The notes beneath the pieces were generated by a model, which was given only the letters and a program-made list of their open reading frames with translations, searched no databases and was not told where the DNA came from. From Lytechinus pictus (lineage: Eukaryota): 64,000 nucleotides of DNA. The stretch lies in the NCBI RefSeq assembly GCF_037042905.1, contig NC_087251.1:14448001-14512000 (forward strand), given 5' to 3'. Both the position numbers and the translations under genes were made by a program. This document shows, piece by piece, positions 11,088-35,454 of the stretch. Each line of letters begins with the position of its first letter. Position 1 is the first letter of the stretch.

Positions 11088-11132
<45 letters not shown>

Positions 11133-11275
11133 TCAAGCTCGTCAGGGGGGCAAAAAAGGTTTTTCAAGCCCGTCAGGGGGGGGGGGGGCAAAGATACGTT
11201 TTTGCATGGGTTGTGACTCATCAGGGGGGGGCAGTGTGCCCCCCTGCCCCCCCCCCCCCCGTAGGTACGCTTGTG
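10955..11275. mobile_element. GC/homopolymer-rich MITE, hAT-like
   Basis: Imperfect TIR cagtggcgtaccta / taggtacgcttgtg; exact 8-bp TSD actcaatg (10947-10954, 11276-11283). Confidence 0.85.
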
Positions 11276-11921
11276 ACTCAATGTATTTGTATGTCTTAGA
11301 AAAAATGATATTTTGTTCAATGTAGAAAAGGGAAATTGTTTTTGCTTCATTTGATAGAAAGTCAAGGTCAATTTAGCCTAAAGGTGCTTACGTGTCAATG
11401 AAAGTAAATCGTGCACACGATGCAGAGTATAGTAGCGTAAAGACGTAGAGGGCGTGAGAGATGTGAACGTGAACAGATGTGAACCGTATTTCGGTGAATT
11501 ATATTAGTTTATTACAGATTCTGAGAATGAAGTTTACATTACATAAAGGAGTCTTATAACCTATTAGGAGAAATTGACCTTTGAATGAGTACTTAAAACA
11601 TTTTTTTGCATTAATTAATAAACCTTGATGGTGGTGATGTAGCTGGTATTTTATTTAAATTGTGCCAAAGCATGAGGGTGATTTTAGTTGTAGCTTATCA
11701 GCTCTCATAGGATTTGATAAAGACAAAACCATTTAGGACTATTGAGAATGGATGTTAATAATTTTGAAAGCAAATGATATAAGGCGATAATTTACATAGA
11801 ATAAGCCCTATTTTACTGCTCACAGACTCATGAATAATCATAAGTCATCAAAGGTAATGAATTATTTTGAAGGACGTTTACATTTAATATTTAGATAAAA
11901 GGAACTATTTCTGCATGTTAA

Positions 11922-12917
11922 GGTGACAGGTGCCCTATTACCGTGCGGAAACGACTACGGGTATATAATCAAGCATAGGATTCTTACTAAGTACCTGTAC
12001 CCCAACAAACTATATATTTTTGGAAAGCTTATGAGCTGATCTACACAAAAATTTGCACTGTGGCATATTAGCTTTAGGCATAAGCAAAATATGGTCATTC
12101 AAAGTCATGACTTTAAAAATCAAGATTTTTCTCTATATGAACTTTCTATGGTTATAACTTCACAACATAGAGTGTAATTTAAGTTTTGATGGATTAATTT
12201 AATTCTCTGACTTCTTTGTGATGAATTTATGATGGATTTAAGAAATATTCAGAGTAGAATTGTAAAAATTATGGATTAAACAAGCAGTCAGATAATGAGA
12301 AATTCAGAATGGACTTTTATACACAACTCCACCTGTGGGGGTACCATGCACAAAAACTATCATTATTTTGTTGTACTCTTCAAGATACACAATTCTACAA
12401 AATTTCATGCAAATCCAATGATTAGAACTCAAGTTATTACATTTTTCATTTAAAAAACCCTCAATTTTGTATAATATCACGATAAAGAAAGGGCTATAAT
12501 ACTAATAATAACGGAAATTTGTAACGTGCCATGTCTGTCACATAGTGTATGTAACTTGAAGTCGCTGCCATATTGTGCAATACAGTAGCTCTCCCTATTT
12601 GGCCAACAGAGGGTGGTAGTCCACTTTGCTACATGGAATATCTGGGGCTTCAGCCAAAAAAAATCTGGGGAATTTCTGATTTTTTTTAAAGGCAGTATCA
12701 AAGGTTTTGGGGACAGATTTAATCACTTCCGGTGTGTAAAATACTACTTCCGGTTTGAGAATTTTATGAAAATATGTTTTAACCCCCCTCTTATTAAAAA
12801 AAGAGGTAGAATATTGAGATAAAACAAGTTGCATGATGAAGTACACACATGAAACTAGCAAAGGAGACAAAAAAATTGAAATCATTAAAAAAAAAAATTT
12901 TTAGGGCACCTGTCACC
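11922..12917. mobile_element. TTAA-flanked non-autonomous DNA transposon (Kolobok-like GG...CC termini)
   Basis: ttaa|ggtgacaggtgcccta ... tagggcacctgtcacc|ttaa, perfect 16-bp TIR. Confidence 0.85.
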
Positions 12918-13239
12918 TTAAGAGTACACAAATAATTAGTCAATGAAGACTTGATTTCAGTATGAACAAATTTATTTCTAAAGGATAATATAGGAAGGAG
13001 TTATGATAAGGTGTTACATATAAACATAATTCAGTTTACTACATAAAATAGCTGTCATAAAGAGCAAGGCATGGATGTTGAACAATAATTAGATTTAGTT
13101 AATGAAATCGTACATAAATTGAGTCAAATGTTTTTGACAAAATAAGTATATTTTGCAGCATACTTATGATGTTTTCATTTCCTTTTTCGATTATGCAGAT
13201 TGAATAAGATGTATCTATACAGTTATTGGTACTTCTAAA

Positions 13240-13655
13240 GGCGACCGCACACCTTACGACTGGTCTGCGACCCGATTTTGGAACAAATCGCTTTTGCTCA
13301 TTTTCTGAAGATGTGAATGGAACATATCATTTTATTTGAGGTTAAAATTAATTGAAATATTAATATTATAGCCATTTTGAAAGATTACAAGCCCTTACTT
13401 TGGAGTAAAGTCCAAATTAGTTTCAAATAGTAGCCAATCGTACGACTGCTATGACGTCATTACGACTAGATATTAAATTCGCTTTTATTCTAAGAAGGAT
13501 GATAGTATACTAGTCACAAATTTGATCATAGGTATTGGTAAGATGATTTAGAACATTACAGAGTAAGATATTCCAAGTCTCAGTATTAGCATCAAATTCC
13601 ACTACATTTTATTTTAAAATCGGGTCGCAGACCAGTCGTAAGGTGTGCGGTCGCC
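13240..13655. mobile_element. MITE with 40-bp perfect TIR, TAAA flanks
   Basis: taaa|ggcgaccgcacaccttacgactggtctgcgacccgatttt ... aaaatcgggtcgcagaccagtcgtaaggtgtgcggtcgcc|taaa; decayed relatives at ~54421-54822 and ~59370-60158. Confidence 0.9.
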
Positions 13656-14834
13656 TAAACTTCCAGGCTTGAAAATTTCCTTTCTGTGGTGATCCAGTAA
13701 CAAATACTCTACAAATTTGCAGTTTTTATAAAATATATGTACAGACAAAAGAGCAGGAAAAGAAACAAATCTACTAGCAAAATGATGATCTGTTAAGAAC
13801 CAAACCGCAAAACAAAATAGTAAGTATACAGCAACTGAATTCTCCATGTAAGTCCTAAATACAAAATACAAAAGCACTATATCTATGGTGAAAAAAAATA
13901 TATATATGACATAAAACGCTTACAATAAGAAAAAAAATACCAGAGTTGTTAAAAAACAATATTAATATGGCAAGTCATTACTGTATTATATTGCTGTTTG
14001 GGGCGGGGGTGGGACGCAAACCCAAATCCTTGACCACTAAACCCAGGACCCAATCCTGTTACATTCAGAAAACTGAAATTGATGATTGCACAAACATGAA
14101 TATCCATAACATTATGGATTTATACAGGTAAAATATCAGTTACAGACTCAATTTTTCATGTCTTTCTTTCACCAAAATTACCACAAGAATATATATTGGA
14201 TATACAAGTTTTATCAATGAAACTGTAAGAGATATTCTAATTAGAAACGGTTGACTTGAGAACTTGGGTGCAATGTTCACTTCCAAACATTGTCACCAAC
14301 AGGAGATACATACCAGTGATGCCCTGGAATAGATTCTTTTTAATTTACAATAAGAAGTCCTGTAAATTGCATGAAAACCATATACAACATGAATCATTAC
14401 ATGTGACAGGACCCTTGCATAAAATTTGAAACGTTTGTTTTGCAGAGGGTTTATTCTTGTACTAGTATACTTTTGGGCATTAATCAATAATAAAGGGGAG
14501 CTAAAAAAGAAAGAGAAAAAATATTTCCAAGAAACAGGTGCAAAAATAGCTTCTATGAATCAAAGTAATTGTAAAGCAAACCAAGTGGTCTTTATACTTT
14601 TAAAATTCTTCAAAATAATAAAGAAGGAAAAAATTATGGCATAATATGTATATGGTGTAAAAAACTTTTTCATAAAACTGTAAAAAAAATATGAAAGACA
14701 AAAGCCATATTATATCTATGGTTTCAATGGCATACCCTGCACAACCTGTTTAACTCCTACAATAAGAAAGACCAAAAATGTGGATGACAAAGATGACATA
14801 CCCAAGGTGTAAGACAATATTACCCAAAATTCTT

Positions 14835-15435
14835 TTTACCTTGGGGGCAGAGTGGATCTCTGCTTATTTCCATAAAAATGTTTTGAAGAACACGCAAAAT
14901 AAGGCAAAGTATAAAGCAAATCAATACTCCATAAAACTCCTACAATACAAAAGACATAAGCTTGACGCTAAGGTAAATATATATCACCTAAAATGCTTTA
15001 CCTTGGATCTCTGCTTAATCAAAAAAAAAAAGGTTTGAAGAACAAGCAAAATAAAGCAAAGTATAAAGCAAATCAATACTACATAAAACTACAATACAAA
15101 AGATTTACGGTAAGGTAAATATATATGACATGAAATGCTTTACCTTGCATGCAGAGTGGATTTCTGCTTATGTCCATAAAATGTTTTTAAGAACAAGCAA
15201 AATAAAGCAAAGTAAAAAGCAAATCATTACTACATAAAACTCCTACAATACAAAAGACATAAGCTTGACGCTAAGGTAAATATATATCACCTAAAATGCT
15301 TTACCTTGGATCTCTGCTTATTTCCAAAAAAAAAGGTTTGAAGAACAAGCAAAATAAAGCAAAGTACAAAGCAAATCAATACTACATAAAACTACAATAC
15401 AAAAGATTTACGGTAAGGTAAATATATATGACATA
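14835..15435. repeat. Tandem repeat, 4 x ~151 bp arranged as a ~302-bp dimer x2
   Basis: gcaaaataa(g/a)gcaaagta..aagcaaatca recurs near 14895, 15046, 15196 and 15349; copies 1/3 and 2/4 share diagnostic segments. Confidence 0.9.
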
Positions 15436-15851
15436 AAAAAAGTGTTAAGCGATATAAAAGCAAGTATGATGGTATTTCTCAGGTCTACACACCTAATGAT
15501 ATTGTACTAATATTCAACTAGAATATTTTTTTACATTTCACAAAATCTTTCAGTAAATAATGTTCATTATATCCTTATAGTATCTCATTAAAATTTGTAA
15601 TATAAGATTTTCTTGGTAACAAACCTCGGGCAGTCATTTTCAGATTAAAAAAAATAGTACCCATGTCTGCTCATCCATTTATCTGCACATGATTCAGGGA
15701 TTTTGATAAGTAAGGCAGGATTTTCAGGCTATCATATGAAATGCCCAATATTCATTAATTTGCCACAATTTTCAGTCAATTTCTTAATAAATATCTGTCC
15801 TCCTGTCTTTGAAGCATGCATACAGCTCTTGCAATTATCAAGTGCACATAC

Positions 15852-15993
15852 CCAGGGAAGAATGATATCCTTCATTATACAGCCTTGTCACAGTTTCAAG
15901 TGAATTAATCCACTGGAAATTGTCATTGGTGCCGTTCAGCTCCTCAAGTTGTAGACGAAGTTTTGACTTCCATGATGCATGGCTACGTTCAGC
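15852..15993 (-). CDS. Integrase next exon (carries the catalytic E)
   Basis: ttgttttcattttacag| then AERSHASWKSKLRLQLEELNGTNDNFQWINSLETVTRLYNEGYHSSLG |gtatgt; completes QGKAER and the W...YN...HSSLG integrase motif. Confidence 0.88.
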
Positions 15994-16690
15994 CTGTAAA
16001 ATGAAAACAAGAATTATTACAATTCATTTTGTTGCAATAATAGGAAGAAATGTGAAACATTGTTGCCTGATTTCTGACAGGTGGTTTTTAAAACCAAATT
16101 TTGGTGTCAAAAGTTGCACAAGACTTGACAGTAAAAAATCATCAAGTAACACGGTAAAACATTTTGCACAGCAGATTTATCACGTCAATTGAAATATAAT
16201 TGTAAATATACAAGGTTGGTTAGGAAAATAAATGGATTGAATTGAAAATAAAGTATGAAAATATTTGCTTGAGAATACATGTACTCTTTCACCCCATACA
16301 CGTAAATACGTCATGATATGACATATACATGTACCTGTATTGTCCCTAAAAGCTTTGAAAGGTGTAATCTCTTTCTGGCTCATGTATCAATATTGCTTGT
16401 GTGCATTCTATTCTTTTTTTTAAACACATGATGAAATATCTTCTTTCATGCAATTCTAATTCTCCTCATATCAAAACTAATAGTTTAGAAACTAAAATGT
16501 TTTTGTTTCTATTTTACACCTGTTTCCTTTAGTAGAATTACAAGAAATTTGTGATTTTTAAGTATATCATAAAGTTAAACATCATGAAGGCAAGAATCCA
16601 ATTATTATCAAATTTTCTAAATAAACATGGATTGCTGGTGCCCTGACATACCAAACAAAAAACAGAACTTTAATTATAGGATATTCTTAC

Positions 16691-17458
16691 TTTTCCTTGT
16701 GATTCTGGTTTGTAAGGTGCACTGAGGATTATTCGCACACCAAGTCGACTCATGAGCAGTCGAACAGCACCCTTAAATTCCGTCCCTCTGTCTGCTTGTA
16801 AGATTTTGGGGGGTCCAAATACATCATATACATTTCCAAGAACACCAGCTACCTCTTCTGAAGTCTTCGATTTAAGTGCCTTCAGGAACAAGTACCTGCT
16901 AAAGACATCAATCACACTCAAAATATAATTGTAATCACCCTCTCCACCTACGCTCCTCATGTCCACCAAGTCCACTTGATTCCTTTCCATTACGCTGCAC
17001 GCCCCTACAGGAATTAGTGGTGCACAGTTTTGGAATTGGGGCTTGTTCTTCTGGACCGATGGTTTCTTGTTCAACCACTTTTGGATCCCGCTCTTATGTA
17101 GACCAACAAACACCTTTTGAATTCTCTTTGTCAGTTTGAGTGCGCCATCTCCTATAGTTTCACGATAGAAGCTTTCCAATATCTCATCAATTTCATTTGT
17201 CCTGATGATGATTCTGTATGCATCATTAGTGGGAAAAACCAGTCGATCTTCCAAGTTTCTTGTAACTGGGTTGTAAATCTTCTGTATCCGTACACCTGGC
17301 CATTTTCGCAGAAATCTACTCACTCTGTGCCATTTCTGGTTTTCTTCCTTAGCAGTCTTCGTCGCCCCGTGATGTCCACTACTCAATGCATCAAACACCA
17401 GCTTGTAGGTCTCTGGATCCATCGCTGATGGGCGCCTTGACCTTTTGATGATTTTGAC
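16691..17458 (-). CDS. Integrase/transposase (rve core, Ginger/TDD/KRBA2-SCAND3 type), main exon
   Basis: ORF 16670-17422 contains ERNQVDLVDM, YILSVIDVFSRYLFL, FGPPKILQADRGTEF and SAPYKPESQGK. Polypyrimidine+AG acceptor at 17460-17459 with 12 in-frame codons before MDPETY; GTAAGA donor at 16690 in phase 0. Confidence 0.9.
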
Positions 17459-17949
17459 CTTTAATTACAAGGAAAAAAAGAAATGTAAAACATAGCGTAT
17501 GTTGGAAACGAACTACTGTAAAACTGGGTGACATTGAACCTATTCTTATAATTATTCCTTACGAGATGTACCAGATGGTTTGATACAAATTCATGTTCAT
17601 TATAATTTGGAATTGACTCTTTCATGGTACATGTTTGTAGGGGCAAGTTGCTGGAAACTGCTGTTGGGAATTTTTTTTGAGGTTCAAAATCACCTTTGGA
17701 CCGGAGTCAGATTATGATCAGCTTTTTTAAAGGCTGTTATTTAAAAATCCTATTCCCAAAAGTCTTTCTTTGTGTTTTTTTAATAATATAAAAAATATAT
17801 GGCAACAAACAAATTGACATTATATGCTGGTATCGTGTCTTCCAAGGTTATTAGTACATTTCACCACTTACATGTAACCTTGCTGGCAATGTTGGCTGTC
17901 CCCTCCCTGTTCAAGACCACGCCATGTTACGTTTATATATCAACTGCCA

Positions 17950-20900
17950 ACTAATACTTAAATCTTTGTGAAACACCCCCTGAAGAAACCCGTCTTTGTA
18001 GTCTAACCTGGCTTTAATAGGCTTTCAAGTGTGATACCCGTGCTTATGATGTAACCTGTCCTTATAGCTTAACCTCCTTTAAAGAGTTAGCTGCTTAAAA
18101 GAATAATCTTGCTTTCAGGTGTAAACTGGCTTTTAAAATGAATGCTGATCTTATCTGGGAGAGCTAGCAGTAAAAAAAGACATCACTTAACTGGTTGGAT
18201 CATGCCGAGAGGACGCGCACTACTGCGTACGTGATGTACGACTAATATTAAAATCTTTGTGAAACACCCCCTGAAGAAACCCGTCTTTGTAGTCTAACCT
18301 GGCTTTAATACGCTTTCAAGTGTGATACCCGTGCTTATGATGTAACCTGTCCTTATAGCTTAACCTCCTGTAAAGAGTTTAGCTGCTTAAAAGAATAATC
18401 TTGCTTTCAGGTGTAAACTGGCTTTTAAAATGAATGCTGATCTTATCTGGGAGAGCTAGCAGTAAAAAAAGACATCACTGAACTGGTTGGATCATGCCGA
18501 GAGGACGCGCACTACTGCATACGTGATGTACGACTAATATTAAAATCTTTGTGAAACACCCCCTGAAGAAACCCGTCTTTGTAGTCTAACCTGGCTTTAA
18601 TAGGCTTTCACGTGTGATACATGTGCTTATGATGTAACCTGTCCTTATAGCTTAACCTCCTTTAAAGAGTTAGCTGCGTAAAAGAATAATCTTGCTTTCA
18701 AGTGTAAACTGGCTTTTAAAATGTATGCTGATGTTATCTGGGAGAGCAAGCAGTAAAAAAAGACATCACTGAACTGGTTGGATCATGCCGAGAGGACGCG
18801 CACTACTGCATACGTGATGTACGACTAATATTAAAATCTTTGTGAAACACCCCCTGAAGAAACCCGTCTTTGTAGTCTAACCTGGCTTTAATAGGCTTTC
18901 ACGTGTGATACATGTGCTTATGATGTAACCTGTCCTTATAGCTTAACCTCCTTTGAAGAGTTAGCTGCGTAAAAGAATAATCTTGCTTTCAAGTGTAAAC
19001 TGGCTTTTAAAATGTATGCTGATGTTATCTGGGAGAGCAAGCAGTAAAAAAAGACATCACTGAACTGGTTGGATCATGCCAAGAGGACGCGCACTACTGC
19101 GTACGTGATGTACGACTAATACTTAAATCTTTGTGAAACACCCCCTGAAGAAACCCGTCTTTGTAGTCTAACCTGGCTTTAATAGGCTTTCAAGTGTGAT
19201 ACATGTGCTTATGATGTAACCTGTCCTTATAGCTTAACCTCCTTTAAAGAGTTAGCTGCTTAAAAGAATAATATTGCTTTCAGGTGTAAACTGGCTTTTA
19301 AAATGAATGCTGATCTTATCTGGGAGAGCGAGCAGTAAAAAAAGACATCACTGAACTGGTTGGATCATGCCGAGAGGACGCGCACTACTGCGTACGTGAT
19401 GTACGACTAATATTAAAATCTTTGTGAAACACCCCCTGAAGAAACCCGTCTTTGTAGTCTAACCTGGCTTTAATAGGCTTTCACGTGTGATACATGTGCT
19501 TATGATGTAACCTGTCCTTATAGCTTAACCTCCTTTAAAGAGTTAGCTGCGTAAAAGAATAATCTTGCTTTCAAGTGTAAACTGGCTTTTAAAATGTATG
19601 CTGATGTTATCTGGGAGAGCAAGCAGTAAAAAAAGACATCACTGAACTGGTTGGATCATGCCGAGAGGACGCGCACTACTGCATACGTGATGTACGACTA
19701 ATATTAAAATCTTTGTGAAACACCCCCTGAAGAAACCCGTCTTTGTAGTCTAACCTGGCTTTAATAGGCTTTCACGTGTGATACATGTGCTTATGATGTA
19801 ACCTGTCCTTATAGCTTAACCTCCTTTGAAGAGTTAGCTGCGTAAAAGAATAATCTTGCTTTCAAGTGTAAACTGGCTTTTAAAATGTATGCTGATGTTA
19901 TCTGGGAGAGCAAGCAGTAAAAAAAGACATCACTGAACTGGTTGGATCATGCCAAGAGGACGCGCACTACTGCGTACGTGATGTACGACTAATACTTAAA
20001 TCTTTGTGAAACACCCCCTGAAGAAACCCGTCTTTGTAGTCTAACCTGGCTTTAATAGGCTTTCAAGTGTGATACATGTGCTTATGATGTAACCTGTCCT
20101 TATAGCTTAACCTCCTTTAAAGAGTTAGCTGCTTAAAAGAATAATATTGCTTTCAGGTGTAAACTGGCTTTTAAAATGAATGCTGATCTTATCTGGGAGA
20201 GCGAGCAGTAAAAAAAGACATCACTGAACTGGTTGGATCATGCCGAGAGGACGCGCACTACTGCGTACGTGATGTACGACTAATATTAAAATCTTTGTGA
20301 AACACCCCCTGAAGAAACCCGTCTTTGTAGTCTAACCTGGCTTTAATAGGCTTTCAAGTGTGATACCCGTGCTTATGATGTAACCTGTCCTTATAGCTTA
20401 ACCTCCTTTAAAGAGTTAGCTGCTTAAAAGAATAATCTTGCTTTCAGGTGTAAACTGGCTTTTAAAATGAATGCTGATCTTATCTGGGAGAGCTAGCAGT
20501 AAAAAAAGACATCACTGAACTGGTTGGATCATGCCGAGAGGACGCGAACTGCTGCGTATGTGATGTACGACTAATATTAAAATCTTTGTGAAACACCCCC
20601 TGAAGAAACCCGTCTTTGTAGTCTAACCTGGCTTAAATAGGCTTTCAAGTGTGATACCCGTGCTTATGATGTAACCTGTCCTTATAGCTTAACCTCCTTT
20701 AAAGAGTTTAGCTGCTTAAAAGAATAATATTGCTTTCAGGTGTAAACTGGCTTTTAAAATGAATGCTGATCTTATCTGGGAGAGCTAGCAGTAAAAAAAG
20801 ACATCACTGAACTGGTTGGATCATGCCGAGAGGACGCGCACTACTGCGTACGTGATGTACGACTAATATTAAAATCTTTGTGAAACACCCCCTGAAGAAC

Positions 20901-23900
20901 CCCGTCTTTGTAGTCTAACCTGGCTTTAATAGGCTTTCAAGTGTGATACATGTGCTTATGATGTAACCTGTCCTTATAGCTTAACCTCCTTTAAAGAGTT
21001 AGCTGCTTAAAAGAATAATCTTGCTTTCAGGTGTAAACTGGCTTTTAAAATGAATGCTGATCTTATCTGGGAGAGCTAGCAGTAAAAAAGACATTACTGA
21101 ACTGGTTGGATCATGCCAAGAGGACGCGCACTACTGCGTACGTGATGTACAACTAATATTTAAATCTTTGTGAAACACCCCCTGAAGAAACCTGTCTTTG
21201 TAGTCTAACCTGGCTTTAATAGGCTTTCAAGTGTGATACCCGTGCTTATGATGTAACCTGTCCTTATAGCTTAACCTCCTTTAAAGAGTTTAGCTGCTTA
21301 AAAGAATAATCTTGCTTTCAGGTGTAAGCTGGCTTTGAAAATGAATGCTGATCTTATCTGGGAGAGCAAGCAGTAAAAAAAGACATCACTGAACTGGTTG
21401 GATCATGCCAAGAGGACGCGCACTACTGCGTACGTGATGTACGACTAATACTTAAATCTTTGTGAAACACCCCCTGAAGAAACCCGTCTTTGTAGTCTAA
21501 CCTGGCTTTAATAGGCTTTCAAGTGTGATACCCGTGCTTATGATGTAACCTGTCCTTATAGCTTAACCTCCTTTAAAGAGTTTAGCTGCTTAAAAGAATA
21601 ATCTTGCTTTCAGGTGTAAACTGGCTTTTAAAATGAATGCTGATCTTATCTGGGAGAGCTAGCATTAAAAAAGACATCACTGAACTGGTTGGATCATGCC
21701 GAGAGGACGCGAACTGCTGCGTACGTGATGTACGACTAATATTAAAATCTTTGTGAAACACCCCCTGAAGAAACCCGTCTTTGTAGTCTAACCTGGCTTT
21801 AATAGGCTTTCACGTGTGATACATGTGCTTATGATGTAACCTGTCCTTATAGCTTAACCTCCTTTAAAGAGTTGGCTGCTTAAAAGAATAATCTTGCTTT
21901 CAGGTGTAAACTGGCTTTTAAAATGTATGCTGATCTTATCTGGGAGAGCAAGCAGTAAAAAAAGACATCACTGAACTGGTTGGATCATGCCAAGAGGACG
22001 CGCACTACTGCGTACGTGATGTACGACTAATACTTAAATCTTTGTGAAACACCCCCTGAAGAAACCCGTCTTTGTAGTCTAACCTGGCTTTAATAGGCTT
22101 TCAAGTGTGATACCCGTGCTTATGATGTAACCTGTCCTTATAGCTTAACCTCCTTTAAAGAGTTAGCTGCTTAAAAGAATAATCTTGCTTTCAGGTGTAA
22201 ACTGGCTTTTAAAATGAATGCTGATCTTATCTGGGAGAGCTAGCAGTAAAAAAAGACATCACCGAACTGGTTGGATCATGCCGAGAGGACGCGCACTACT
22301 GCGTACGTAATGTACGACTAATATTAAAATCTTTGTGAAACACCCCCTGAAGAAACCCGTCTTTGTAGTCTAACCTGGCTTTAATAGGCTTTCAAGTGTG
22401 ATACCCGTGCTTATGATGTAACCTGTCCTTATATCTTAACCTCCTTTAAAGAGTTTAGCTGCTTAAAAGAATAATCTTGCTTTCAGGTGTAAACTGGCTT
22501 TTAAAATGAATGCTGATCTTATCTGGGAGAGCTAGCAGTAAAAAAAGACATCACTGAACTGGTTGGATCATGCCGAGAGGACGCGCACTACTGCATACGT
22601 GATGTACGACTAATATTAAAATCTTTGTGAAACACCCCCTGAAGAAACCCGTCTTTGTAGTCTAACCTGGCTTTAATAGGCTTTCACGTGTGATACATGT
22701 GCTTATGATGTAACCTGTCCTTATAGCTTAACCTCCTTTAAAGAGTTAGCTGCGTAAAAGAATAATCTTGCTTTCAAGTGTAAACTGGCTTTTAAAATGT
22801 ATGCTGATGTTATCTGGGAGAGCAAGCAGTAAAAAAAGACATCACTGATCTGGTTGGATCATGCCGAGAGGACGCGCACTACTGCATACGTGATGTACGA
22901 CTAATATTAAAATCTTTGTGAAACACCCCCTGAAGAAACCCGTCTTTGTAGTCTAACCTGGCTTTAATAGGCTTTCAAGTGTGATACATGTGCTTATGAT
23001 GTAACCTGTCCTTATAGCTTAACCTCCTTTAAAGAGTTAGCTGCTTAAAAGAATAATATTGCTTTCAGGTGTAAACTGGCTTTTAAAATGAATGCTGATC
23101 TTATCTGGGAGAGCGAGCAGTAAAAAAAGACATCACTGAACTGGTTGGATCATGCCGAGAGGACGCGCACTACTGCGTACGTGATGTACGACTAATATTA
23201 AAATCTTTGTGAAACACCCCCTGAAGAAACCCGTCTTTGTAGTCTAACCTGGCTTTAATAGGCTTTCAAGTGTGATACCCGTGCTTATGATGTAACCTGT
23301 CCTTATAGCTTAACCTCCTTTAAAGAGTTAGCTGCTTAAAAGAATAATCTTGCTTTCAGGTGTAAACTGGCTTTTAAAATGAATGCTGATCTTATCTGGG
23401 AGAGCTAGCAGTAAAAAAAGACATCACTGAACTGGTTGGATCATGCCGAGAGGACGCGAACTGCTGCGTACGTGATGTACGACTAATATTAAAATCTTTG
23501 TGAAACACCCCCTGAAGAAACCCGTCTTTGTAGTCTAACCTGGCTTTAATAGGCTTTCAAGTGTGATACCCGTGCTTATGATGTAACCTGTCCTTATAGC
23601 TTAACCTCCTTTAAAGAGTTTAGCTGCTTAAAAGAATAATATTGCTTTCAGGTGTAAACTGGCTTTTAAAATGAATGCTGATCTTATCTGGGAGAGCTAG
23701 CAGTAAAAAAAGACATCACTGAACTGGTTGGATCATGCCGAGAGGACGCGCACTACTGCGTACGTGATGTACGACTAATATTAAAATCTTTGTGAAACAC
23801 CCCCTGAAGAACCCCGTCTTTGTAGTCTAACCTGGCTTTAATAGGCTTTCAAGTGTGATACATGTGCTTATGATGTAACCTGTCCTTATAGCTTAACCTC

Positions 23901-26900
23901 CTTTAAAGAGTTAGCTGCTTAAAAGAATAATCTTGCTTTCAGGTGTAAACTGGCTTTTAAAATGAATGCTGATCTTATCTGGGAGAGCTAACAGTAAAAA
24001 AGACATTACTGAACTGGTTGGATCATGCCAAGAGGACGCGCACTACTGCGTACGTGATGTACAACTAATATTTAAATCTTTGTTAAACACCCCCTGAAGA
24101 AACCCGTCTTTGTAGTCTAACCTGGCTTTAATAGGCTTTCACGTTGATACCTGTGCTTATGATGTAACCTGTCCTTATAGCTTACCTCCTTTAAAGAGTT
24201 AGCTGCTTAAAAGAATTATCTTGCTTTCAGGTGTAAACTGGCCTTTAAAATGAATACTGATCTTATCTGGGAGAGCTAGCAGTAAAAAAGACATCACTGA
24301 ACTGGTTGGATCATGCCGAGAGGACGCGCACTACTGTGACGTGATGTACGACTAATACTTAAATCTTTGTGAAACACCCCCTGAAGAAACCCGTCTTTGT
24401 AGTCTAACCTGGCTTTAATAGGCTTTCAAGTGTGATACATGTGCTTATGATGTAACCTGTCCTTATAGCTTAACCTCCTTTAAAGAGTTTAGCTGCTTAA
24501 AAGAATAATCTTGCTTTCAGGTGTAAACTGGCTTTTAAAATGAATGCTGATCTTATCTGGGAGAGCTAGCAGTAAAAAAGACATCACTGAACTGGTTGGA
24601 TCATGCCAAGAGGACGCGCACTACTGCGTATGTGATGTACAACTAATATTTAAATCTTTGTTAAACACCCCCTGAAGAAACCCGTCTTTGTAGTCTAACC
24701 TGGCTTTAATAGGCTTTCACGTGTGATACATGTGCTTATGATGTAACCTGTCCTTATATCTTAACCTTCTTTAAAGAGTTTAGCTGCTTAAAAGAATAAT
24801 CTTGCTTTCAAGTGTAAACTGGCTTTTAAAATGTATGCTGATCTTATCTGGGAGAGCAAGCAGTAAAAAAAGACATCACTGAACTGGTTGGATCATGCCA
24901 AGAGGACGCGCACTACTGCGTACGTGATGTACGACTAATACTTAAATCTTTGTGAAACACCCCCTGAAGAAACCCGTCTTTGTAGTCTAACCTGGCTTTA
25001 ATAGGCTTTCAAGTGTGATACCCGTGCTTATGATGTAACCTGTCCTTATAGCTTAACCTCCTTTAAAGAGTTAGCTGCTTAAAAGAATAATCTTGCTTTC
25101 AGGTGTAAACTGGCTTTTAAAATGAATGCTGATCTTATCTGGGAGAGCTAGCAGTAAAAAAAGACATCACTAAACTGGTTGGATCATGCCGAGAGGACGC
25201 GCACTACTGCGTACGTGATGTACGACTAATATTAAAATCTTTGTGAAACACCCCCTGAAGAAACCCGTCTTTGTAGTCTAACCTGGCTTTAATAGGCTTT
25301 CAAGTGTGATACCCGTGCTTATGATGTAACCTGTCCTTATATCTTAACCTCCTTTAAAGAGTTTAGCTGCTTAAAAGAATAATCTTGCTTTCAGGTGTAA
25401 ACTGGCTTTTAAAATGAATGCTGATCTTATCTGGGAGAGCTAGCAGTAAAAAAAGACATCACTGAACTGGTTGGATCATGCCGAGAGGACGCGCACTACT
25501 GCATACGTGATGTACGACTAATATTAAAATCTTTGTGAAACACCCCCTGAAGAAACCCGTCTTTGTAGTCTAACCTGGCTTTAATAGGCTTTCACGTGTG
25601 ATACATGTGCTTATGATGTAACCTGTCCTTATAGCTTAACCTCCTTTAAAGAGTTAGCTGCGTAAAAGAATAATCTTGCTTTCAAGTGTAAACTGGCTTT
25701 TAAAATGTATGCTGATGTTATCTGGGAGAGCAAGCAGTAAAAAAAGACATCACTGATCTGGTTGGATCATGCCGAGAGGACGCGCACTACTGCATACGTG
25801 ATGTACGACTAATATTAAAATCTTTGTGAAACACCCCCTGAAGAAACCCGTCTTTGTAGTCTAACCTGGCTTTAATAGGCTTTCACGTGTGATACATGTG
25901 CTTATGATGTAACCTGTCCTTATAGCTTAACCTCCTTTGAAGAGTTAGCTGCGTAAAAGAATAATCTTGCTTTCAAGTGTAAACTGGCTTTTAAAATGTA
26001 TGCTGATGTTATCTGGGAGAGCAAGCAGTAAAAAAAGACATCACTGAACTGGTTGGATCATGCCAAGAGGACGCGCACTACTGCGTACGTGATGTACGAC
26101 TAATACTTAAATCTTTGTGAAACACCCCCTGAAGAAACCCGTCTTTGTAGTCTAACCTGGCTTTAATAGGCTTTCAAGTGTGATACCCGTGCTTATGATG
26201 TAACCTGTCCTTATAGCTTAACCTCCTTTAAAGAGTTTAGCTGCTTAAAAGAATAATCTTGCTTTCAGGTGTAAACTGGCTTTTAAAATGAATGCTGATC
26301 TTATCTGGGAGAGCGAGCAGTAAAAAAAGACATCACTGAACTGGTTGGATCATGCCGAGAGGACGCGCACTACTGCGTACGTGATGTACGACTAATATTA
26401 AAATCTTTGTGAAACACCCCCTGAAGAAACCCGTCTTTGTAGTCTAACCTGGCTTTAATAGGCTTTCAAGTGTGATACCCGTGCTTATGATGTAACCTGT
26501 CCTTATAGCTTAACCTCCTTTAAAGAGTTAGCTGCTTAAAAGAATAATCTTGCTTTCAGGTGTAAACTGGCTTTTAAAATGAATGCTGATCTTATCTGGG
26601 AGAGCTAGCAGTAAAAAAAGACATCACTGAACTGGTTGGATCATGCCGAGAGGACGCGAACTGCTGCGTACGTGATGTACGACTAATATTAAAATCTTTG
26701 TGAAACACCCCCTGAAGAAACCCGTCTTTGTAGTCTAACCTGGCTTTAATAGGCTTTCAAGTGTGATACATGTGCTTATGATGTAACCTGTCCTTATAGC
26801 TTAACCTCCTTTAAAGAGTTAGCTGCTTAAAAGAATAATATTGCTTTCAGGTGTAAACTGGCTTTTAAAATGAATGCTGATCTTATCTGGGAGAGCGAGC

Positions 26901-29535
26901 AGTAAAAAAAGACATCACTGAACTGGTTGGATCATGCCGAGAGGACGCGCACTACTGCGTACGTGATGTACGACTAATATTAAAATCTTTGTGAAACACC
27001 CCCTGAAGAAACCCGTCTTTGTAGTCTAACCTGGCTTTAATAGGCTTTCAAGTGTGATACCCGTGCTTATGATGTAACCTGTCCTTATAGCTTAACCTCC
27101 TTTAAAGAGTTAGCTGCTTAAAAGAATAATCTTGCTTTCAGGTGTAAACTGGCTTTTAAAATGAATGCTGATCTTATCTGGGAGAGCTAGCAGTAAAAAA
27201 AGACATCACTGAACTGGTTGGATCATGCCGAGAGGACGCGAACTGCTGCGTACGTGATGTACGACTAATATTAAAATCTTTGTGAAACACCCCCTGAAGA
27301 AACCCGTCTTTGTAGTCTAACCTGGCTTTAATAGGCTTTCAAGTGTGATACCCGTGCTTATGATGTAACCTGTCCTTATAGCTTAACCTCCTTTAAAGAG
27401 TTTAGCTGCTTAAAAGAATAATATTGCTTTCAGGTGTAAACTGGCTTTTAAAATGAATGCTGATCTTATCTGGGAGAGCTAGCAGTAAAAAAAGACATCA
27501 CTGAACTGGTTGGATCATGCCGAGAGGACGCGCACTACTGCGTACGTGATGTACGACTAATATTAAAATCTTTGTGAAACACCCCCTGAAGAACCCCGTC
27601 TTTGTAGTCTAACCTGGCTTTAATAGGCTTTCAAGTGTGATACATGTGCTTATGATGTAACCTGTCCTTATAGCTTAACCTCCTTTAAAGAGTTAGCTGC
27701 TTAAAAGAATAATCTTGCTTTCAGGTGTAAACTGGCTTTTAAAATGAATGCTGATCTTATCTGGGAGAGCTAACAGTAAAAAAGACATTACTGAACTGGT
27801 TGGATCATGCCAAGAGGACGCGCACTACTGCGTACGTGATGTACAACTAATATTTAAATCTTTGTTAAACACCCCCTGAAGAAACCCGTCTTTGTAGTCT
27901 AACCTGGCTTTAATAGGCTTTCACGTTGATACCTGTGCTTATGATGTAACCTGTCCTTATAGCTTACCTCCTTTAAAGAGTTAGCTGCTTAAAAGAATTA
28001 TCTTGCTTTCAGGTGTAAACTGGCCTTTAAAATGAATACTGATCTTATCTGGGAGAGCTAGCAGTAAAAAAGACATCACTGAACTGGTTGGATCATGCCG
28101 AGAGGACGCGCACTACTGTGACGTGATGTACGACTAATACTTAAATCTTTGTGAAACACCCCCTGAAGAAACCCGTCTTTGTAGTCTAACCTGGCTTTAA
28201 TAGGCTTTCAAGTGTGATACATGTGCTTATGATGTAACCTGTCCTTATAGCTTAACCTCCTTTAAAGAGTTTAGCTGCTTAAAAGAATAATCTTGCTTTC
28301 AGGTGTAAACTGGCTTTTAAAATGAATGCTGATCTTATCTGGGAGAGCTAGCAGTAAAAAAGACATCACTGAACTGGTTGGATCATGCCAAGAGGACGCG
28401 CACTACTGCGTATGTGATGTACAACTAATATTTAAATCTTTGTTAAACACCCCCTGAAGAAACCCGTCTTTGTAGTCTAACCTGGCTTTAATAGGCTTTC
28501 ACGTGTGATACATGTGCTTATGATGTAACCTGTCCTTATATCTTAACCTTCTTTAAAGAGTTTAGCTGCTTAAAAGAATAATCTTGCTTTCAGGTGTAAA
28601 CTGGCTTTTAAAATGAATGCTGATCTTATCTGGGAGAGCTAGCAGTAAAAAAGACATCACTGAACTGGTTGGATCATGCCAAGAGGACGCGCACTACTGC
28701 GTACGTGATGTACAACTAATATTTAAATCTTTGTGAAACATCCCCTGAAGAAACCCGTCTTTGTAGTCTAACCTGGCTTTAATAGGCTTTCACGTTGATA
28801 CCTGTGCTTATGATGTAACCTGTCCTTATAGCTTAACCTCCTTTAAAGAGTTAGCTGCTTAAAAGAATTATCTTGCTTTCAGGTGTAAACTGGCCTTTAA
28901 AATGAATACTGATCTTATCTGGGAAAGCTAGCAGTAAAAAAGACATCACTGAACTGGTTGGATCATGCCGAGAGGACGCGCACTACTGTGACGTGATGTA
29001 CGACTAATACTTAAATCTTTGTGAAACACCCCCTGAAGAAACCCGTCTTTGTAGTCTAACCTGGCTTTAATAGGCTTTCACGTGTGATACATGTGCTTAT
29101 GATGTAACCTGTCCTTATAGCTTAACCTCCTTTAAAGAGTTTAGCTGCTTAAAAGAATAATCTTGCTTTCAGGTGTAAACTGGCTTTTAAAATGAATGCT
29201 GATCTTATCTGGGAGAGCTAGCAGTAAAAAAGACATCACTGAACTGGTTTGATCATGCCGAGAGGACGCGCACTACTGCGTACGTGATGTACGACTAATA
29301 CTTAAATCTTTGTGAAACATCCCCTGAAGAAACCTGTCCTTGTAGTCTAACCTGGCTTTAATTGGCTTTCAAGCTCATGGTGTAACCTGTCCTTATAGCT
29401 TAACCTGCTTAAACAGTAAGCTACATAAAAAAGGAACCTTGCTTTCAAGTGTAACCTAGCTTTTAAAATCGTATCCTAGCTTTTAAAATCGTAACCTAGC
29501 TTTTAAAAGCGTATCCTGATCTTATCTGGGCCTAG
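17950..29535. repeat. Satellite array, ~40 copies of a 290-292-bp unit
   Basis: aatctttgtgaaacaccccctgaagaaacccgtc at 17961, 18252, 18544 and onward; copies differ by only a few bases; last copy decays into a 20-bp sub-repeat (gta(a/t)cctagcttttaaaa) at ~29450-29515. Confidence 0.98.
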
Positions 29536-29564
29536 TAAAAATTGAATCATGCATTGCAACTCAC

Positions 29565-29688
29565 CATTACTCCAAATTAAAAGAGGGATTTCTTGTTCAA
29601 TGCTGCTAAAAAGCAGAGTGCTTGGACTTCTGCCTCCTTCCAGTCTGTCCTTCTTTCTTTATCTCTGCTCACAATCTGTATGATATAC
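29565..29688 (-). CDS. Candidate upstream exon of the integrase gene (5' UTR plus start ATG)
   Basis: Minus strand ...tactacag|...tttggagtaATG|gtgagt; the ATG joins in phase 0 to the acceptor at 17458; in-frame TAA just upstream. Confidence 0.55.
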
Positions 29689-30791
29689 CTGTAGTATAGG
29701 CAAAACCAAACTTTTATAGCTAACAGAATAAGAGTTTCATTTTTTGGGATAAACTACAACAGAACCCCCTTGTGAAAAAAAATCCTTTATATATTCGTTG
29801 ATATGGGTATTACTCAGTTTCATTGGCTCTATACAGAACTGTGTAAAAATAAATTGTGTCCATGTGCATCAAATGTCTTTTTCAAAGGCCACGATCGCAA
29901 TTTAATATACCTCAAAAATAACATTTTTGTATCCCTTACTAAATGTTTTCCAGATTCATCCACTGCGCAAATTTTTTGAGCGCATCACTCACTGACTCTT
30001 TACTTTTACTTTTTTGGGTGTGGACTTGTAAAAAAAGGTAAATTAACAATCAAAGGACCCTTATTTCAATTTTATCATTTTAACCACTCCATTCCCCCTA
30101 TTGTTTGTGTAATTTGATAAAGAGAGAAAGGAGGTCTGTATTGCTGTACCACATCATTCAATTCCCGAAGGTAGGCTTGTATACTTATCAGCATGATTTT
30201 TTTTAATCATTTATTTTATCTGCAAGGTATAATTAGGAAATAATTTTGCTGCCCCCAATTGGAAAACACACAGGTTTTCGTTGACAAAAAGGCTATTGGA
30301 TCAATTGGCAATTAGACGAAATGTTGATGAACAAAATGGATTAGAAAAAATGGCAGATCATGTGGTGGGTGGACGGGATGGCAGTAGATGATTTGGCACA
30401 ACTGCTAATTGTATGGTTTAAGTTACATGTAGATCCTATTTGTAAAGTATAATATTCCCAAGCAGTTCAAGCATGGTTGGGGTGGAGAACAATATTCATG
30501 CACCCCTTTCTTTAAATATGAAGATGAAAAATTCATAAATTACCCAACATTAAGAGTAAGTGCCCCCTGAAGAACCCCATCAAATCTTTCAGTGTAACAT
30601 GTTATTCAAGTTGAAACAAAGTTTAAGACATACAGCAAGGGTTGTTTGGAAGCAGATTCTTGATATGATGACTTTTGTGACTTAATGGATGAATAAACTG
30701 GAAGAATTAATGGGTTCTTTGGGATGTGGTCTTACTTTGATTTTAAACATCAATGAAAAACTGAGAGGAAATAAGTTTATCTTGCAATTAC

Positions 30792-33133
30792 CTAGTCTAG
30801 TCTTAAACTGGTAAAGGGAAAGGAGGCCGAGATCCGGTGATCAGATAAATGCCTGTAAAAACACAAAAACAAAATGTATCGGTGGTTCTAAAACACATAA
30901 CATACAAATAACAAATAAAAAACAAGACAAAAGAAACTAAGAATAAAAATATCAAGTAATAAAGGTGGAGTGACTCTGGTAGTCTCCCCTGCATCCACGA
31001 TTCAATATAGCACCAGAGCTGACTTTAAAAAAACAACTATAAATTCACTATTCACAAAAACACAATGTTCTTATCTTAATATACTACTACATTTATTAAC
31101 CCTTAATGACATTTGACCTTGATCTAGGAACCTACATGTACATGTTAGACTTGTGCAAGATGAGCAATGATACTAGATTACCCATATGTCCACATTGCAT
31201 TAACAATATCCATTAACTTTATGATGGCAATGAGCTATGATGGTAATTCAATAATTGCCCACAACATGGCCAAAATTTGACACTAAGTGACCTTTCACCT
31301 TATTAATGTGACCTGCAGAGCAGGTTCAGTGATAAATACCTGATTACTCTTATGACCAAGTTTCATGAACTACATCCTTTATCCATAGAGCTATCTCTGT
31401 AAGAGCTCCATGCTTTAACTATCAAAGTTATTATGGTAAATCAACAAAGAAATTGACCAATGTTCATTGACCATAGACCTTAGTCATGTGATCTGTATAT
31501 TGCACAGGATGTTCAGTGATACTTCTTTACTCTTATGTCAATTTTCATGCACCAGTTCCATAAACTTTCAAAGTTGTGGTGGAAAAAACAACTACCCCCA
31601 ACATGATTCAAGGTTCATTGACCTTGGTCATGAGACGTTAAACCATGCCTTTCTAATTGCTCTCTGCTGTACAGGCAAGATAGAAAGAAAAAATCAACAA
31701 GCCTCATAAAAGAAAGATTGGCATGTTGTCAATGATCACGGCAGTATTTTTGATTGAGAGTCACTTGCATTATCTGAGTTTAATTATTTCATAGTATATG
31801 AATTTAAATAATTATTCAAATTCATACACTATGAAATATATTAAACTCAAATACATAAAGAAAATGAAGCTCACAGATAATGTTCAAGAAGCCTGGCATG
31901 AATGGTCCTGTGAGTTTCAGGGCTGGAGCATCTCATCATTACTTTAGATGTTATAGATGAAAAACTTGAATAAAATAAGTTAATTTGGAACTTACCAACT
32001 TTAAGTCTCTACACTAGTCGCATAAAGTGAGGTGAGGTTGTGATTCTGCATTCTTGGAAGTACCTGAAAAAATTGAGTGTAGCAACCAAAACATAAAATA
32101 AGACAAAATATAATAAAACAATAACAACACACTTTTTTAAATAGTGCTTAATTCATCACAACGACATGTCTAAGCGCTTTACAGATATATTATTACCCAG
32201 GTCATCGAATTCAATTGGTAATTCCCGCACACAATGTGTGAACATCCTCCACTCCCATTGAGCAATTCAATGTAGCAGCAGTGCTAAACTTAGAAACTAC
32301 TAGAAAATAATTATTCACAAAAAAAAAACACTACCAGGTACATTCATTTGCCCGAAAAGATATTAGACCATGATCATGTGTAAGACCTAAGTCTTATCAG
32401 AGTTATTGGACCTTGGACCTGAGACCATGGCAAGAGAATCAGGTATACTTTTGTATGTGGAATAATATTAACAAACATAATTTCTTAATTTGAATATCAA
32501 TGTAATGAATTTGATTTACTATTGTTGTGTCAATTCTTAGCCAACACATAGAATAACATCTGTCGCCAGACATTGCAAAACAGTGCATAGATCTGACAGC
32601 TTCAAGTTTGTAATGTATACACACAATGCTTTTCTTTATAATAAACCAAGCAAACTTATTGTGAGCTTAATTAGTACAGTCCATCAGACCCTTGAAATAT
32701 ATATGGCGCAAGAGTGATTCTGTCTGTAGGGGCAAAAGGTTAATGCCTCAATACGCACAACTGCATGCGTACAGTAATAAATTCACCAGACTAAAACCAT
32801 AGATGGAATGACCAAGAATTACAGGCCACTGCCTTCTTCCTATACTAGATAATGATGATGATGAAGATGAACAGGAGCAAAAATAACACTTTTTTCAAAA
32901 TATGCAAATTCTGTGCTTTAATGACTCCATAACAAATCTTGCTATATCCCATGCTTGGATTAGACTTGATAATTTGTATATTGGAAGATTTGATAGGTTT
33001 TCAGGGGGATCTTACTTTAGATGTTATATATCAAAGAAAATAATTAATAAAATAAGTTATTATAGAACTTACCAATTTCAAGTCTCTACACTAGTCGCAT
33101 AAAGGGATGTTGTGATTGCAATCTTGCAAGTTC
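30792..33133 (-). other. Three candidate non-coding mini-exons (30792-30852, 31996-32063, 33073-33133)
   Basis: Each is bounded by a pyrimidine-rich ...cag acceptor and a gtaa donor on the minus strand; the last two share aagtctctacactagtcgcataaag. Confidence 0.55.
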
Positions 33134-33696
33134 CTGAAAATAAATGTGTGTGTGGACAACAAAACATAAAAATAAAATTTAAAAAAGGCGAGCGCATCTG
33201 GCAGTCTCACCTGCATTGCGCAATTCAATATAGCAGCAGTGCTGACTTTGAAAACTACTATAAATAGTTATTCACAAAAAACACCATTCAAATGATTCAA
33301 TACTACATTCATTGACAATAAATGACATTTTACCTTGATCATGTGACCTAAGACTTGTCAGTGATACTTGATTACCCCGATTTCTACGTATTATAAAGTA
33401 TATCTATTACCTTGGAAAGTTATGACAGCAATCTAACAATTACCTCCAACATGGCCCTCGCACATGCCATGTTTTGAAAAAACAGTGAATAATTAATCAA
33501 GTGTGAGGAACTCCATGTCGGCTGTAAATCACCAATTTTGAGGCTGATAGAAGCATGGAAAACAAGTGAAACTTTGTGTAAAGTAAGAATATTAAATTTG
33601 ATTGTTTTTAAAGATCATGATGTTGCATGAATTTTTTATTTTTCACCATAAAATTCCATCTTTGTCAATTGGAGTATCAGAACGAGTTCACGTTCG

Positions 33697-34084
33697 GGTA
33701 ACCCAGGGAGCTCCGGCCCACGAAGCGTGCCGCAACCCAGGAGTCCACCGTGCATTTAGACATAGACACAGGACAAGGGTAGATTGTGGTCATAATAACT
33801 TAGTAGAAAATTGTGTAAACAGAAATTATGCACTTACCACGATTATATGGATGAAGGTCTATCATGTGGCAGTATCCTGACATCGAGGCACAGACTGGAA
33901 CCTCGAAAAAAAAGAAAAGTTCTGTCCTTCTGCCCCAGTCTCGATCGGCCATTTTGTAATGAATTTTGAAAAAATTAGGAGGGGTATCGCAACAGAACTT
34001 TTCGCTTTTTTGAGGTTCCAGTCTACCCTAGTCCCATGTCTAAGTCTGGCTCAGGCCCGCTTCGCAGCCGGAGCTCCCTGGGTA
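33697..34084. repeat. Nested imperfect inverted repeat
   Basis: acccagggagctccggc (~33701) vs gccggagctccctgggt (~34067-34083); agactggaacctc.aaaaa...aaaagttctgt (~33892) vs acagaacttttt...tttttgaggttccagtct (~33992-34024). Confidence 0.8.
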
Positions 34085-34279
34085 AATGTTCGGGTAGGTG
34101 GAGCTTAGCAGTAGTGAAGTGGAGCCTGCACGAACATCACTTGAGGTAGAGGCACACCTACAGTTTTAAATTAAAACAGGTAGAGAGATACACGTACATC
34201 TTTAACTTAAAACCACTCACACATACTGTGAGGTTAATATTACTAACCTTGCATCGTGAACCACGTGCTGCAATCCCAC

Positions 34280-34513
34280 TTCTGGTGTCCACAAGCACAA
34301 CACACGACTTGTACTGCTTGATTTTTCTGTATGCAGCAGCATGTAATGAACCCTTGCGTGACTTAGTTAGAGTTAGATCTATACACAAATAATTATTATC
34401 TGAGAATAGATCAAACTCTAACTAAATCACGCAAGGGTTCATTACAATTTACATGCCGCCGCGCACAGAAAAATCAAGCAATAAAAGTCGTGTTGTGCTT
34501 GTGGACACGAGAA
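34280..34513. repeat. Imperfect palindrome, ~100-bp arms
   Basis: gtgtccacaagcacaacac / gtgttgtgcttgtggacac; tgtaatgaacccttgcgtga / tcacgcaagggttcattaca. Confidence 0.9.
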
Positions 34514-34669
34514 ATAATAGAACCAGAAGTGAATCAACTTGACAGTCAGCATGCATGTATTAAACAATGTTGAGGATAGAACTTGCAACCCAAACACCAT
34601 AACACAGTTAATCAATGGGCATGGCACAAGTGCAGTTTCGCACCGGTCGATTACCACTACCAGTACTAC

Positions 34670-35275
34670 CTCAGGCGATGTTCATGCAGGCTCCACTCCA
34701 ATTCACTACCGCTACACTACGCTACACCTACCCGAACATCGGGACAGTGAACCAATTCGGATATACCAAGTCACAAAAGGTGGGATCAAATGGTGGTTTA
34801 TTGTAAAAAATCTAGGAAAAATATGTAACGAGGGATATGAATGACTTAATATCTTACTCTACACCCATACAATATTTCACTCCGTGTCCATCCTCCAGTT
34901 ATACTCAAAATTGGTGATTTTGGGCCAGTATCTTTTTCCTCACAGTCGCTGATCGATCACGATCGCATGCAATTTTTTTAAATCGGCCGTGAATAATACG
35001 CGTGAGGAAAAAGATACTGGCCCAAAATCACCAATGTTGAGGATAACCGTAGGCGTAGGATGGACACGGAGTGAAATACGGTGTAGAGTAAGATATTAAG
35101 TCATTCATATCCCTCGTTACATATTTTTCCTAGATTTTTTACAATAAACCACCATTTGATCCCACCTTTTGTGACTCGGTATATCCGAATTGGTTCACTG
35201 TCCCGATGTTCGGGTAGGTGGAGCGTAGTGTAGCAGTAGTTAAGTGGAGTGGAGCCTGCACGAACATCACCTGAG
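34670..35275. repeat. Long palindrome, ~270-bp arms, ~60-bp spacer
   Basis: cctacccgaacatcgggacagtgaaccaattcggatatacc...gggccagtatctttttcctcac is mirrored by gtgaggaaaaagatactggccc...ggtatatccgaattggttcactgtcccgatgttcgggtagg. Confidence 0.95.
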
Positions 35276-35454
35276 TTATACCACTACCAGTACCAATACA
35301 ACTTACAAGCATACCTCACCACAACCATAACACTAACATGACTAACTGTTCACAAATGTCCTAGCAAGTCACATTTCAAGGTCAATATACCCACCGCTTT
35401 TCTAAATATCGCGATCAGGAAAGGCTAAATTTCAATATATTATGGCTTCGCTTG

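Follow-up and report, generated by a model that had tools for sequence, protein, structure and literature searches.

The stretch analysed here, called the window below, is 64,000 nucleotides of DNA from Lytechinus pictus (assembly GCF_037042905.1, contig NC_087251.1, positions 14,448,001 to 14,512,000). It holds a 36,439-bp insertion at 270 to 36708, probably a Ginger2-type transposable element. Its transposase gene, read on the minus strand, encodes an integrase-like protein whose start codon is separated from the rest of the coding sequence by a long first coding intron filled with a 291-bp tandem repeat.

The start codon, ATG at 29567-29565, stands directly before a donor site (GGAGTA ATG|GTGAGT on the minus strand). 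It closes an exon at 29565 to 29688, of which 29565-29594 is seen in RNA-type sequence and whose own acceptor is predicted at 29688 or 29675. The first coding intron (17459 to 29564, minus strand, 12,106 nt, phase 0, GTGAGT...AAG), delimited by sequence and by an RNA-type contig, ends at the acceptor AG at 17460-17459, preceded by a pyrimidine tract and reading AAG. The following coding exon (16691 to 17458, minus strand) contributes 256 codons, including an N-terminal domain devoid of H2C2 zinc-finger ligands and D164 and D224 of the rve core. A second coding intron (15994 to 16690, minus strand, 697 nt, GT-AG) then leads to the last coding exon (15445 to 15993, minus strand), which comprises 51 codons with E259, the TGA at 15840-15838 and a 3' untranslated region (UTR) extending at least to 15445. 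The position of this second intron, after the motif QGK, is common to relatives, 28 of the 107 gene calls with the motif reading into an intron there.

A run search with 15800-17500 listed 11 sequencing runs. Eight of them, from two studies, contain the stretch, and none of these eight is recorded as RNA; their word shares are 0.71 in one run and 0.50 in the seven others, where exons alone would give 0.54. Four of the 11 listed runs (X1, X5, X9 and X10) were compared with 15445-17945, the array lying outside the compared stretch. Contig 1 of X1 (1387 nt, word depth 74) matches 17463-16690, then continues past 17463 into a loose end of 25 letters that is exactly window 29570-29594 and occurs only once in the window, whereas the five letters between match end and loose end fit 29565-29569. 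Because the loose end is unique and the five letters fit, the predicted junction is real in X1. Contig 9 of X5, from the other study (1597 nt, depth 32), has the same structure, also with one differing letter on that piece; its match stops at 17463, with 371 letters upstream of the junction, which is compatible with the predicted splice. Both contigs splice out 16690-15994 at the GT-AG ends, and no exon difference from the window is found in X1 or X5. Outside common repeats, intron depth is 0-6 as against 32-74 on exons in these two runs.

The first-pass annotation had proposed that the start codon may lie apart from the integrase body, behind a 12.1-kb intron almost entirely composed of satellite. 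The X1 contig, joining the ATG at 29567-29565 to 17458, bears out the separation, and the array indeed accounts for 95-96% of the 12,106 nt. It had also called for sequence joining 29565 to 17458: the junction letters are read directly in one of the four runs and a second is compatible. The G at -3 and +4 of the ATG is confirmed on the sequence, and an in-frame TAA lies four codons upstream, which makes this ATG the first in its frame. The 29565/17458 join yields the N-terminus MVKIIKRSRRPSAMDPETY, and the predicted beginning, MVKIIKRSRR, is supported by contig junction and sequence alike; its basic KRSRR is a candidate nuclear-localisation signal. Regarding a start inside 17460-17950, GTRAG sites exist at 17871 and 17562, and no joint from either appears in the four runs. 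Upstream of the junction, the X1 contig extends for exactly 30 letters and no further (29594-29595); in a 31-mer graph, such a beginning hints at a branch, either a variant or a second acceptor for the ATG donor.

The array itself occupies 17950 to 29530 and comprises about 40 copies with block duplications and no open reading frame (ORF). TRF reports 39.7 copies of 291 bp at 17950-29469, and array-like sequence extends to about 29530, 34 nt short of the donor. Forty anchors delimit 39 whole units of 287-292 nt, with a mean pairwise divergence of 3.4% and 19 identical pairs. Variant patterns repeat in blocks, units 4-9 recurring as 17-22 and units 32-34 as 35-37, which is the mark of recent unequal exchange. 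The unit is found nowhere else in the window. A coding role of the array was considered and rejected, the longest open stretch being 37 codons. On the sense strand, each unit presents a pyrimidine-tract TAG, an ATTAAA and only GTT-type donor look-alikes, and 39 pyrimidine-tract TAG sites lie within the first coding intron. The spliceosome evidently passes over them in favour of the AAG at 17459, and exon definition is the likely reason why these acceptor-like sites stay unused. Provided that the mRNA stems from the present copy and not from a sibling whose exons are identical, the array would be transcribed in the transposase pre-mRNA, and its length may influence expression or silencing, as had been proposed.

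The resulting ORF encodes 308 aa and retains D164, D224 and E259 (D-34-E). Its minus-strand portion at 17458-16691 matches rve (E 2e-12). The AlphaFold model of the 256-aa exon (mean predicted local distance difference test score 86) matches foamy-virus and other retroviral integrases, and a fold search returns a retroviral-integrase-type fold with prototype foamy virus (PFV) best (E 1e-10). Searches gave 205 relatives, the best being fragments 56-70% identical. Among 23 hand-picked long relatives, all carry rve, 19 an OTU domain and two an Ulp1 domain. The H2C2 finger (PF17921) matches neither the window exon nor any of these 23 relatives, P0003 included, and the His and Cys positions of the window protein are unsuited to it. 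P0003 is 40% identical to the window exon over 178 aa, and in its core it agrees with the Ginger2-2_CGi row of the PMC10045372 supplement; since P0003 lacks PF17921, the Repbase-labelled subgroup is also without the finger. In a tree of 58 rows, for which 33 of the 205 proteins were picked, from which three of the 27 picked loci are missing and in which one labelled Ginger2 anchor stands, the window protein and P0003 fall in the same 33-row group (support 91/86), apart from a Gypsy Pol.

The protein ends early. A donor-like GTATGT (15846 to 15851, minus strand) follows ...HSSLG; both contigs read past this site, at 15852, and the frame then ends as ...HSSLGMCT-stop (15840-15838). Of 64 relatives running past the core, 54 have an S/T-P motif next, and the median length beyond QGK.ER is 285 residues, whereas the window protein ends about 50 residues after it. 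No C-terminal or OTU part was detected in the window by a hidden Markov model (HMM) of 43 relatives run on 3008 six-frame segments (best E 1.1), by tblastn or by a motif scan. A retroviral integrase deprived of its last core helix and C-terminal domain should no longer be able to integrate. By its sequence, the window transposase thus looks too short to move its own element.

The ends of the element emerge from a scan in which all TG..CA ends on both sides of the gene were paired (997 x 2350) with a cut-off of at least 16 of 20 bases. Among the 51 pairs retained, a single one is flanked by a 4-6-bp direct repeat, and it is a perfect 43-bp TGT...ACA pair. The left terminal inverted repeat (TIR; 270 to 312, plus strand, 43 bp) begins TGTTA and is 100% identical to the right one (36666 to 36708, minus strand, 43 bp); at up to three mismatches, no other copy exists in the window. 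Outside the TIRs stands the target site duplication (TSD) TTCGTA, at 264 to 269 and 36709 to 36714. A TSD of 4 or 5 bp does not fit whereas 6 bp does, and the chance of a flanking 6-mer match is about 4e-4. Once the block is removed and its flanks are joined, a pairwise aligner matches them, junction included, with a neighbouring host repeat unit at a score of 59; none of 300 random joins exceeds 46, and the two halves taken singly score 32 and 37. Taken together, TIRs, TSD and empty-site join define 270-36708 as one insertion of 36,439 bp with a 6-bp TSD, whose 5' end, by the minus-strand orientation of the gene, is at 36708. The insertion target is not RTATAY.

The search for such ends was extended to relatives whose surrounding DNA is available (79 metagenome loci, 30 viral loci and one genome locus, 110 in all). 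In the five examined closely (L001, L003, L006, L016 and L110), the gene is not enclosed by any inverted pair; scanning the 110 loci for TIR-like ends gave three unconvincing matches, and a 22-mer of the TIR has no match in the viral contigs. In L110, a transposase relative with an OTU-region match (86-1951) lies on an 8.4-kb contig of a metagenome-assembled genome of Sedimenticola, probably animal DNA binned with a bacterium.

The gene has its 5' side towards the right TIR and is predicted to include further 5'UTR exons upstream of the start codon, all on the minus strand. Sequence signals place the first at 33838 to 33990, with a donor GTAAGT after 33838. A second at 33073 to 33133 (61 nt), suggested by AG/GT signals and self-similarity, is a duplicate of a third at 31996 to 32063 (68 nt), and a fourth is predicted at 30792 to 30852 (61 nt). 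Together with the ATG-ending exon, their summed length would be compatible with the 371 upstream letters of X5, and the predicted UTR holds six upstream ATGs. At 30790-33340, these predicted exons and flanking intron pieces form tandem duplicates with a spacing of about 1 kb (31939-32117 against 33012-33186, 78%). Rfam gives no match in the whole window, so the duplicated exon-intron units are not known small nucleolar RNA hosts. The promoter side (33697-36370) is filled by nested inverted repeats (33697-33770/36296-36370, 34667-34865/35080-35278, 34342-34446 and 35559-35974). An 11-bp motif beside the left TIR (311) repeats at 33701, 34073 and 36356 and is possibly a subterminal binding motif.

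Between the TIRs, no other coding-looking ORF of at least 120 aa is found, and the interior at 313-15400, without any convincing ORF, contains nested repeats resembling miniature inverted-repeat transposable elements (MITEs). MITE-like pieces with their own short TIRs lie at 13239-13656, 11918-12921 and 9614-10599; of these, 13239-13656 is 75% similar to a copy outside the element, at 54420-54821. A 303-bp unit is duplicated (x2) at 14835 to 15438 with exon-like AG/GT edges, and the 3'UTR runs into it. Past the stop, at 13820-15440, there are several AG/GT-bounded AT-rich units that could be non-coding 3' exons. A 227-bp repeat (x2.4) at 562 to 1113 lies just inside the left TIR. Just beyond the right end, a 1.4-kb foldback element with long inverted arms occupies 37562-38966. 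Farther away on the plus strand, a 466-aa ORF with RVT_1 and ALKBH8_N matches (42681-44081) is a fragment of a non-long-terminal-repeat retroelement, and an MFS_1 transporter exon stands at 55218-56219, with a probable further exon of the same gene at about 51617-52102.

The ends, the TSD, the empty site, the two splice junctions and the 308-aa ORF with its intact DDE triad are all established. The explanation that we favour, and consider probable, is that of a giant non-autonomous Ginger2-type element that is moved in trans, is still transcribed and spliced, encodes a short inert or repressing protein and tolerates a satellite in an intron. Under this explanation, a 36.4-kb cut-and-paste transposon would have entered a host repeat after staggered cleavage of the integrase type, with an offset of 6 bp. 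Transcription would start from a promoter some 2.7 kb inwards of the 5' TIR and would give a pre-mRNA made of several short UTR exons, the ATG-ending exon, the 12.1-kb intron and the two coding exons. The 291-bp array would have grown in that intron by block duplication, through unequal exchange, and would be tolerated because it is spliced out, the roughly 39 acceptor-like sites being followed only by weak GTT donors and thus defining no false exon. The mRNA would read past the donor-like site after the core and then stop, leaving a protein without three parts that its relatives have, namely the last core helix, the C-terminal domain and the OTU domain. As those parts are absent, the copy is probably non-autonomous and moved by an intact sibling, its short protein being either inert or a repressor.

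Several observations weigh against this explanation. Raw RNA reads of X9 and X10 (8.7 and 8.3 million records, about 6% of each run) include no exon read, either because expression is sample-specific or low or because those animals are without the element. As X1 and X5 carry no RNA record, an intronless DNA copy is formally conceivable, and assembled contigs lose rare isoforms, so that there may be a full-length spliced form. Neither the 6-bp TSD nor the absence of an H2C2 finger agrees with Ginger2 as defined in print, and the tree, with a single labelled Ginger2 anchor, has a support that falls short of the starred threshold. Old nested repeats in a 15-kb interior are odd for a young element. 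Finally, one copy is visible, from the window alone, and both mobility and the intact sibling would have to be inferred.

Four other explanations, whose likelihoods partly overlap, compete with the favoured one. The mRNA could come from a sibling copy with identical exons and a short first intron, the present copy and its array being silent. A young family would have identical exons, but the low-depth intron contigs of X1 match the locus with 0-1 difference, including 17517-17675 inside the long intron, and no second exon sequence type appeared, which leaves this source unlikely. A second alternative accepts the splicing of the intron as described and lets translation begin at the internal Met14 (MDPETY), the upstream exon then being in effect 5'UTR. 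Met14, too, is flanked by G at -3 and +4, its equivalent is the called start in the three closest relatives with a complete N-terminus (P0009, P0010 and P0067), and the six upstream ATGs of the predicted UTR point the same way. However, these database starts are machine calls on unspliced DNA, and the upstream ATG is the first in frame, in a strong context. In an alignment of 28 relatives (27 of the 34 reaching the N-terminus, seven near-duplicates or incomplete ones being excluded, plus P0001), the Met14 column holds I in eight, L in eight, V in three, P in three, M in five and a gap in one, thus I, L, V or P in 22 of the 28. The basic R-K/R-P-S-A stretch preceding Met14 also recurs in relatives at about 38% identity (L001 and P0154). 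The non-Met residues and the recurring basic stretch together favour the upstream start, and initiation at Met14 is improbable.

The early end of the protein is open to another reading, in which an autonomous element is under control of the P-element kind: reading through would give a repressor, while a rarer, germline form would splice at 15852 to exons encoding the rest of the transposase. The strong donor-like CTGG|GTATGT coincides with the point at which the protein ceases to resemble its relatives, the region at 13.8-15.4 kb contains several exon-like units bounded by AG/GT, neither the TIRs nor the DDE triad is damaged, and the P element provides a precedent as described in PMC7776569. 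Nevertheless, no C-terminal or OTU homology is found in any frame of the window by the HMM, tblastn or motif scans cited above and both contigs read through the site, so that we hold such regulation to be very unlikely. Slimmer still is the chance of a domesticated host gene, comparable to Imagin, KRBA2 or GIN1, lying between transposon ends or carried as cargo between the ends of another family. An intact multi-exon ORF, the old repeats in the interior and the presence of the stretch in eight runs of two studies, with word shares (0.50-0.71) around the 0.54 expected for exons, would suit a host gene; the perfect TIRs with the TGTNR signature of Ginger, the intact TSD and the clean empty site would not. 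Moreover, the catalytic triad is retained here, whereas Imagin has lost triad and TIRs according to PMC12863088, and the closest database relatives are only fragments 56-70% identical.

If the favoured explanation is correct, the locus widens the size range of non-viral Ginger2-type elements to about five times that of the families listed in Bao 2010 (PMC2836005). It also provides a clean 6-bp TSD in a subgroup likewise devoid of the H2C2 finger, which suggests that 'Ginger2' lumps at least two lineages. The transposase gene would harbour a satellite nursery, as the intron containing the array must be spliced for the protein to gain its start codon, and natural alleles differing in array length would make it possible to see whether output or silencing responds to tandem DNA within a pre-mRNA. 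This novelty is tempered by the fact that arrays within transposons and within introns are already known. A wider conjecture, which we rate as unlikely, is that of a currently mobile family of Ginger2-like elements about 36 kb in length. They would form a distinct lineage, associated with OTU, lacking the zinc finger and making 6-bp TSDs; the satellite in their transposase intron would be spread around the genome with them, and array length would set the dose of a truncated repressor-type transposase.

Among known systems, the locus works like Ginger2/TDD and, as judged by its sequence, belongs to the oyster-type subgroup filed there by Repbase (Ginger2-1/2/3_CGi, Ginger2-1/2_CySi, Ginger2-2_TeGr; PMC2836005, PMC10045372). 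It shares with these elements, as they are presented in both sources, a Gypsy-like DDE core with the motifs R.Q.DL.DM, S.IDVFSR and PY.P.SQGK.ERSH. Like Ginger2, it has TGTNR termini (here TGTTA) and short TIRs (43 bp here as against 45-297 bp), and neither YPYY nor GPY/F is seen in the window protein. It differs in its length, 36.4 kb as against 2.8-6.7 kb for the autonomous families in Table 2 of Bao 2010, and in its 6-bp TSD, the published definition giving 4 bp (5 bp for TDD) and an RTATAY target; PMC6839031 mentions in passing a 6-bp TSD for Ginger2. It also differs in its missing H2C2 finger, truncated product and satellite-filled intron. As two published Ginger2 features, the TSD and the H2C2 finger, fail here, the element is named Ginger2-type rather than a plain member. 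In the open literature, which excludes Repbase reports, no description of a giant or satellite-bearing Ginger2 was found.

The element is not a Ginger1, an IS3EU/GingerRoot or a Polinton. With Ginger1 (PMC2836005) it has in common an intron-containing transposase gene, TGT ends and, through the relatives of its protein, an OTU (19 of 23 scanned) or Ulp1 (two of 23) domain. In contrast, the window protein is without H2C2, YPYY and GPY/F and its core motifs are Ginger2-like by eye, the TSD is not the 4-bp CCGG or CCGT given for Ginger1 in that paper, and the C-terminal OTU/Ulp1 part is absent from this copy. IS3EU/GingerRoot elements, as described in PMC6839031 and PMC10045372, resemble it in their 6-bp TSD, occasional TG..CA ends, missing HHCC motif and large size with cargo, but they have a core type of their own (W.H.D...KL and G.IDG, by-eye comparison with the supplement alignment) and mostly TA..TA ends. 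Polinton/Maverick was considered and rejected, as AG..CT ends and a DNA polymerase gene would be expected, whereas the ends are TG..CA and no such ORF lies between the TIRs. Sesarmid endogenous nimaviruses (PMC10871703) are described there as very large blocks with 46-bp TIRs and an intron-containing Ginger2-like gene, and they indicate that Ginger2-like enzymes can accompany giant elements; they are, however, viral genomes of 265-285 kb inserting into (AT)n, whereas the window element has no other long ORF.

Beyond transposon classification, two other systems offer parallels. In the P element, an unspliced late donor yields the C-terminally short 66-kDa and KP repressors (PMC7776569), as reading past the donor-like site shortens the protein here; the transposase family is unrelated, however, and downstream exons are not found in the window, so that truncation here, by its sequence, looks like loss rather than regulation. 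The Drosophila Y-loop genes kl-3 and kl-5, as portrayed in PMC6508621, likewise splice a near-pure tandem-repeat intron from a protein-coding mRNA. Their satellites are simple and of megabase size, and they are host fertility genes with a special expression programme, whereas here 11.5 kb of a 291-bp unit is spliced from the transcript of a transposon.

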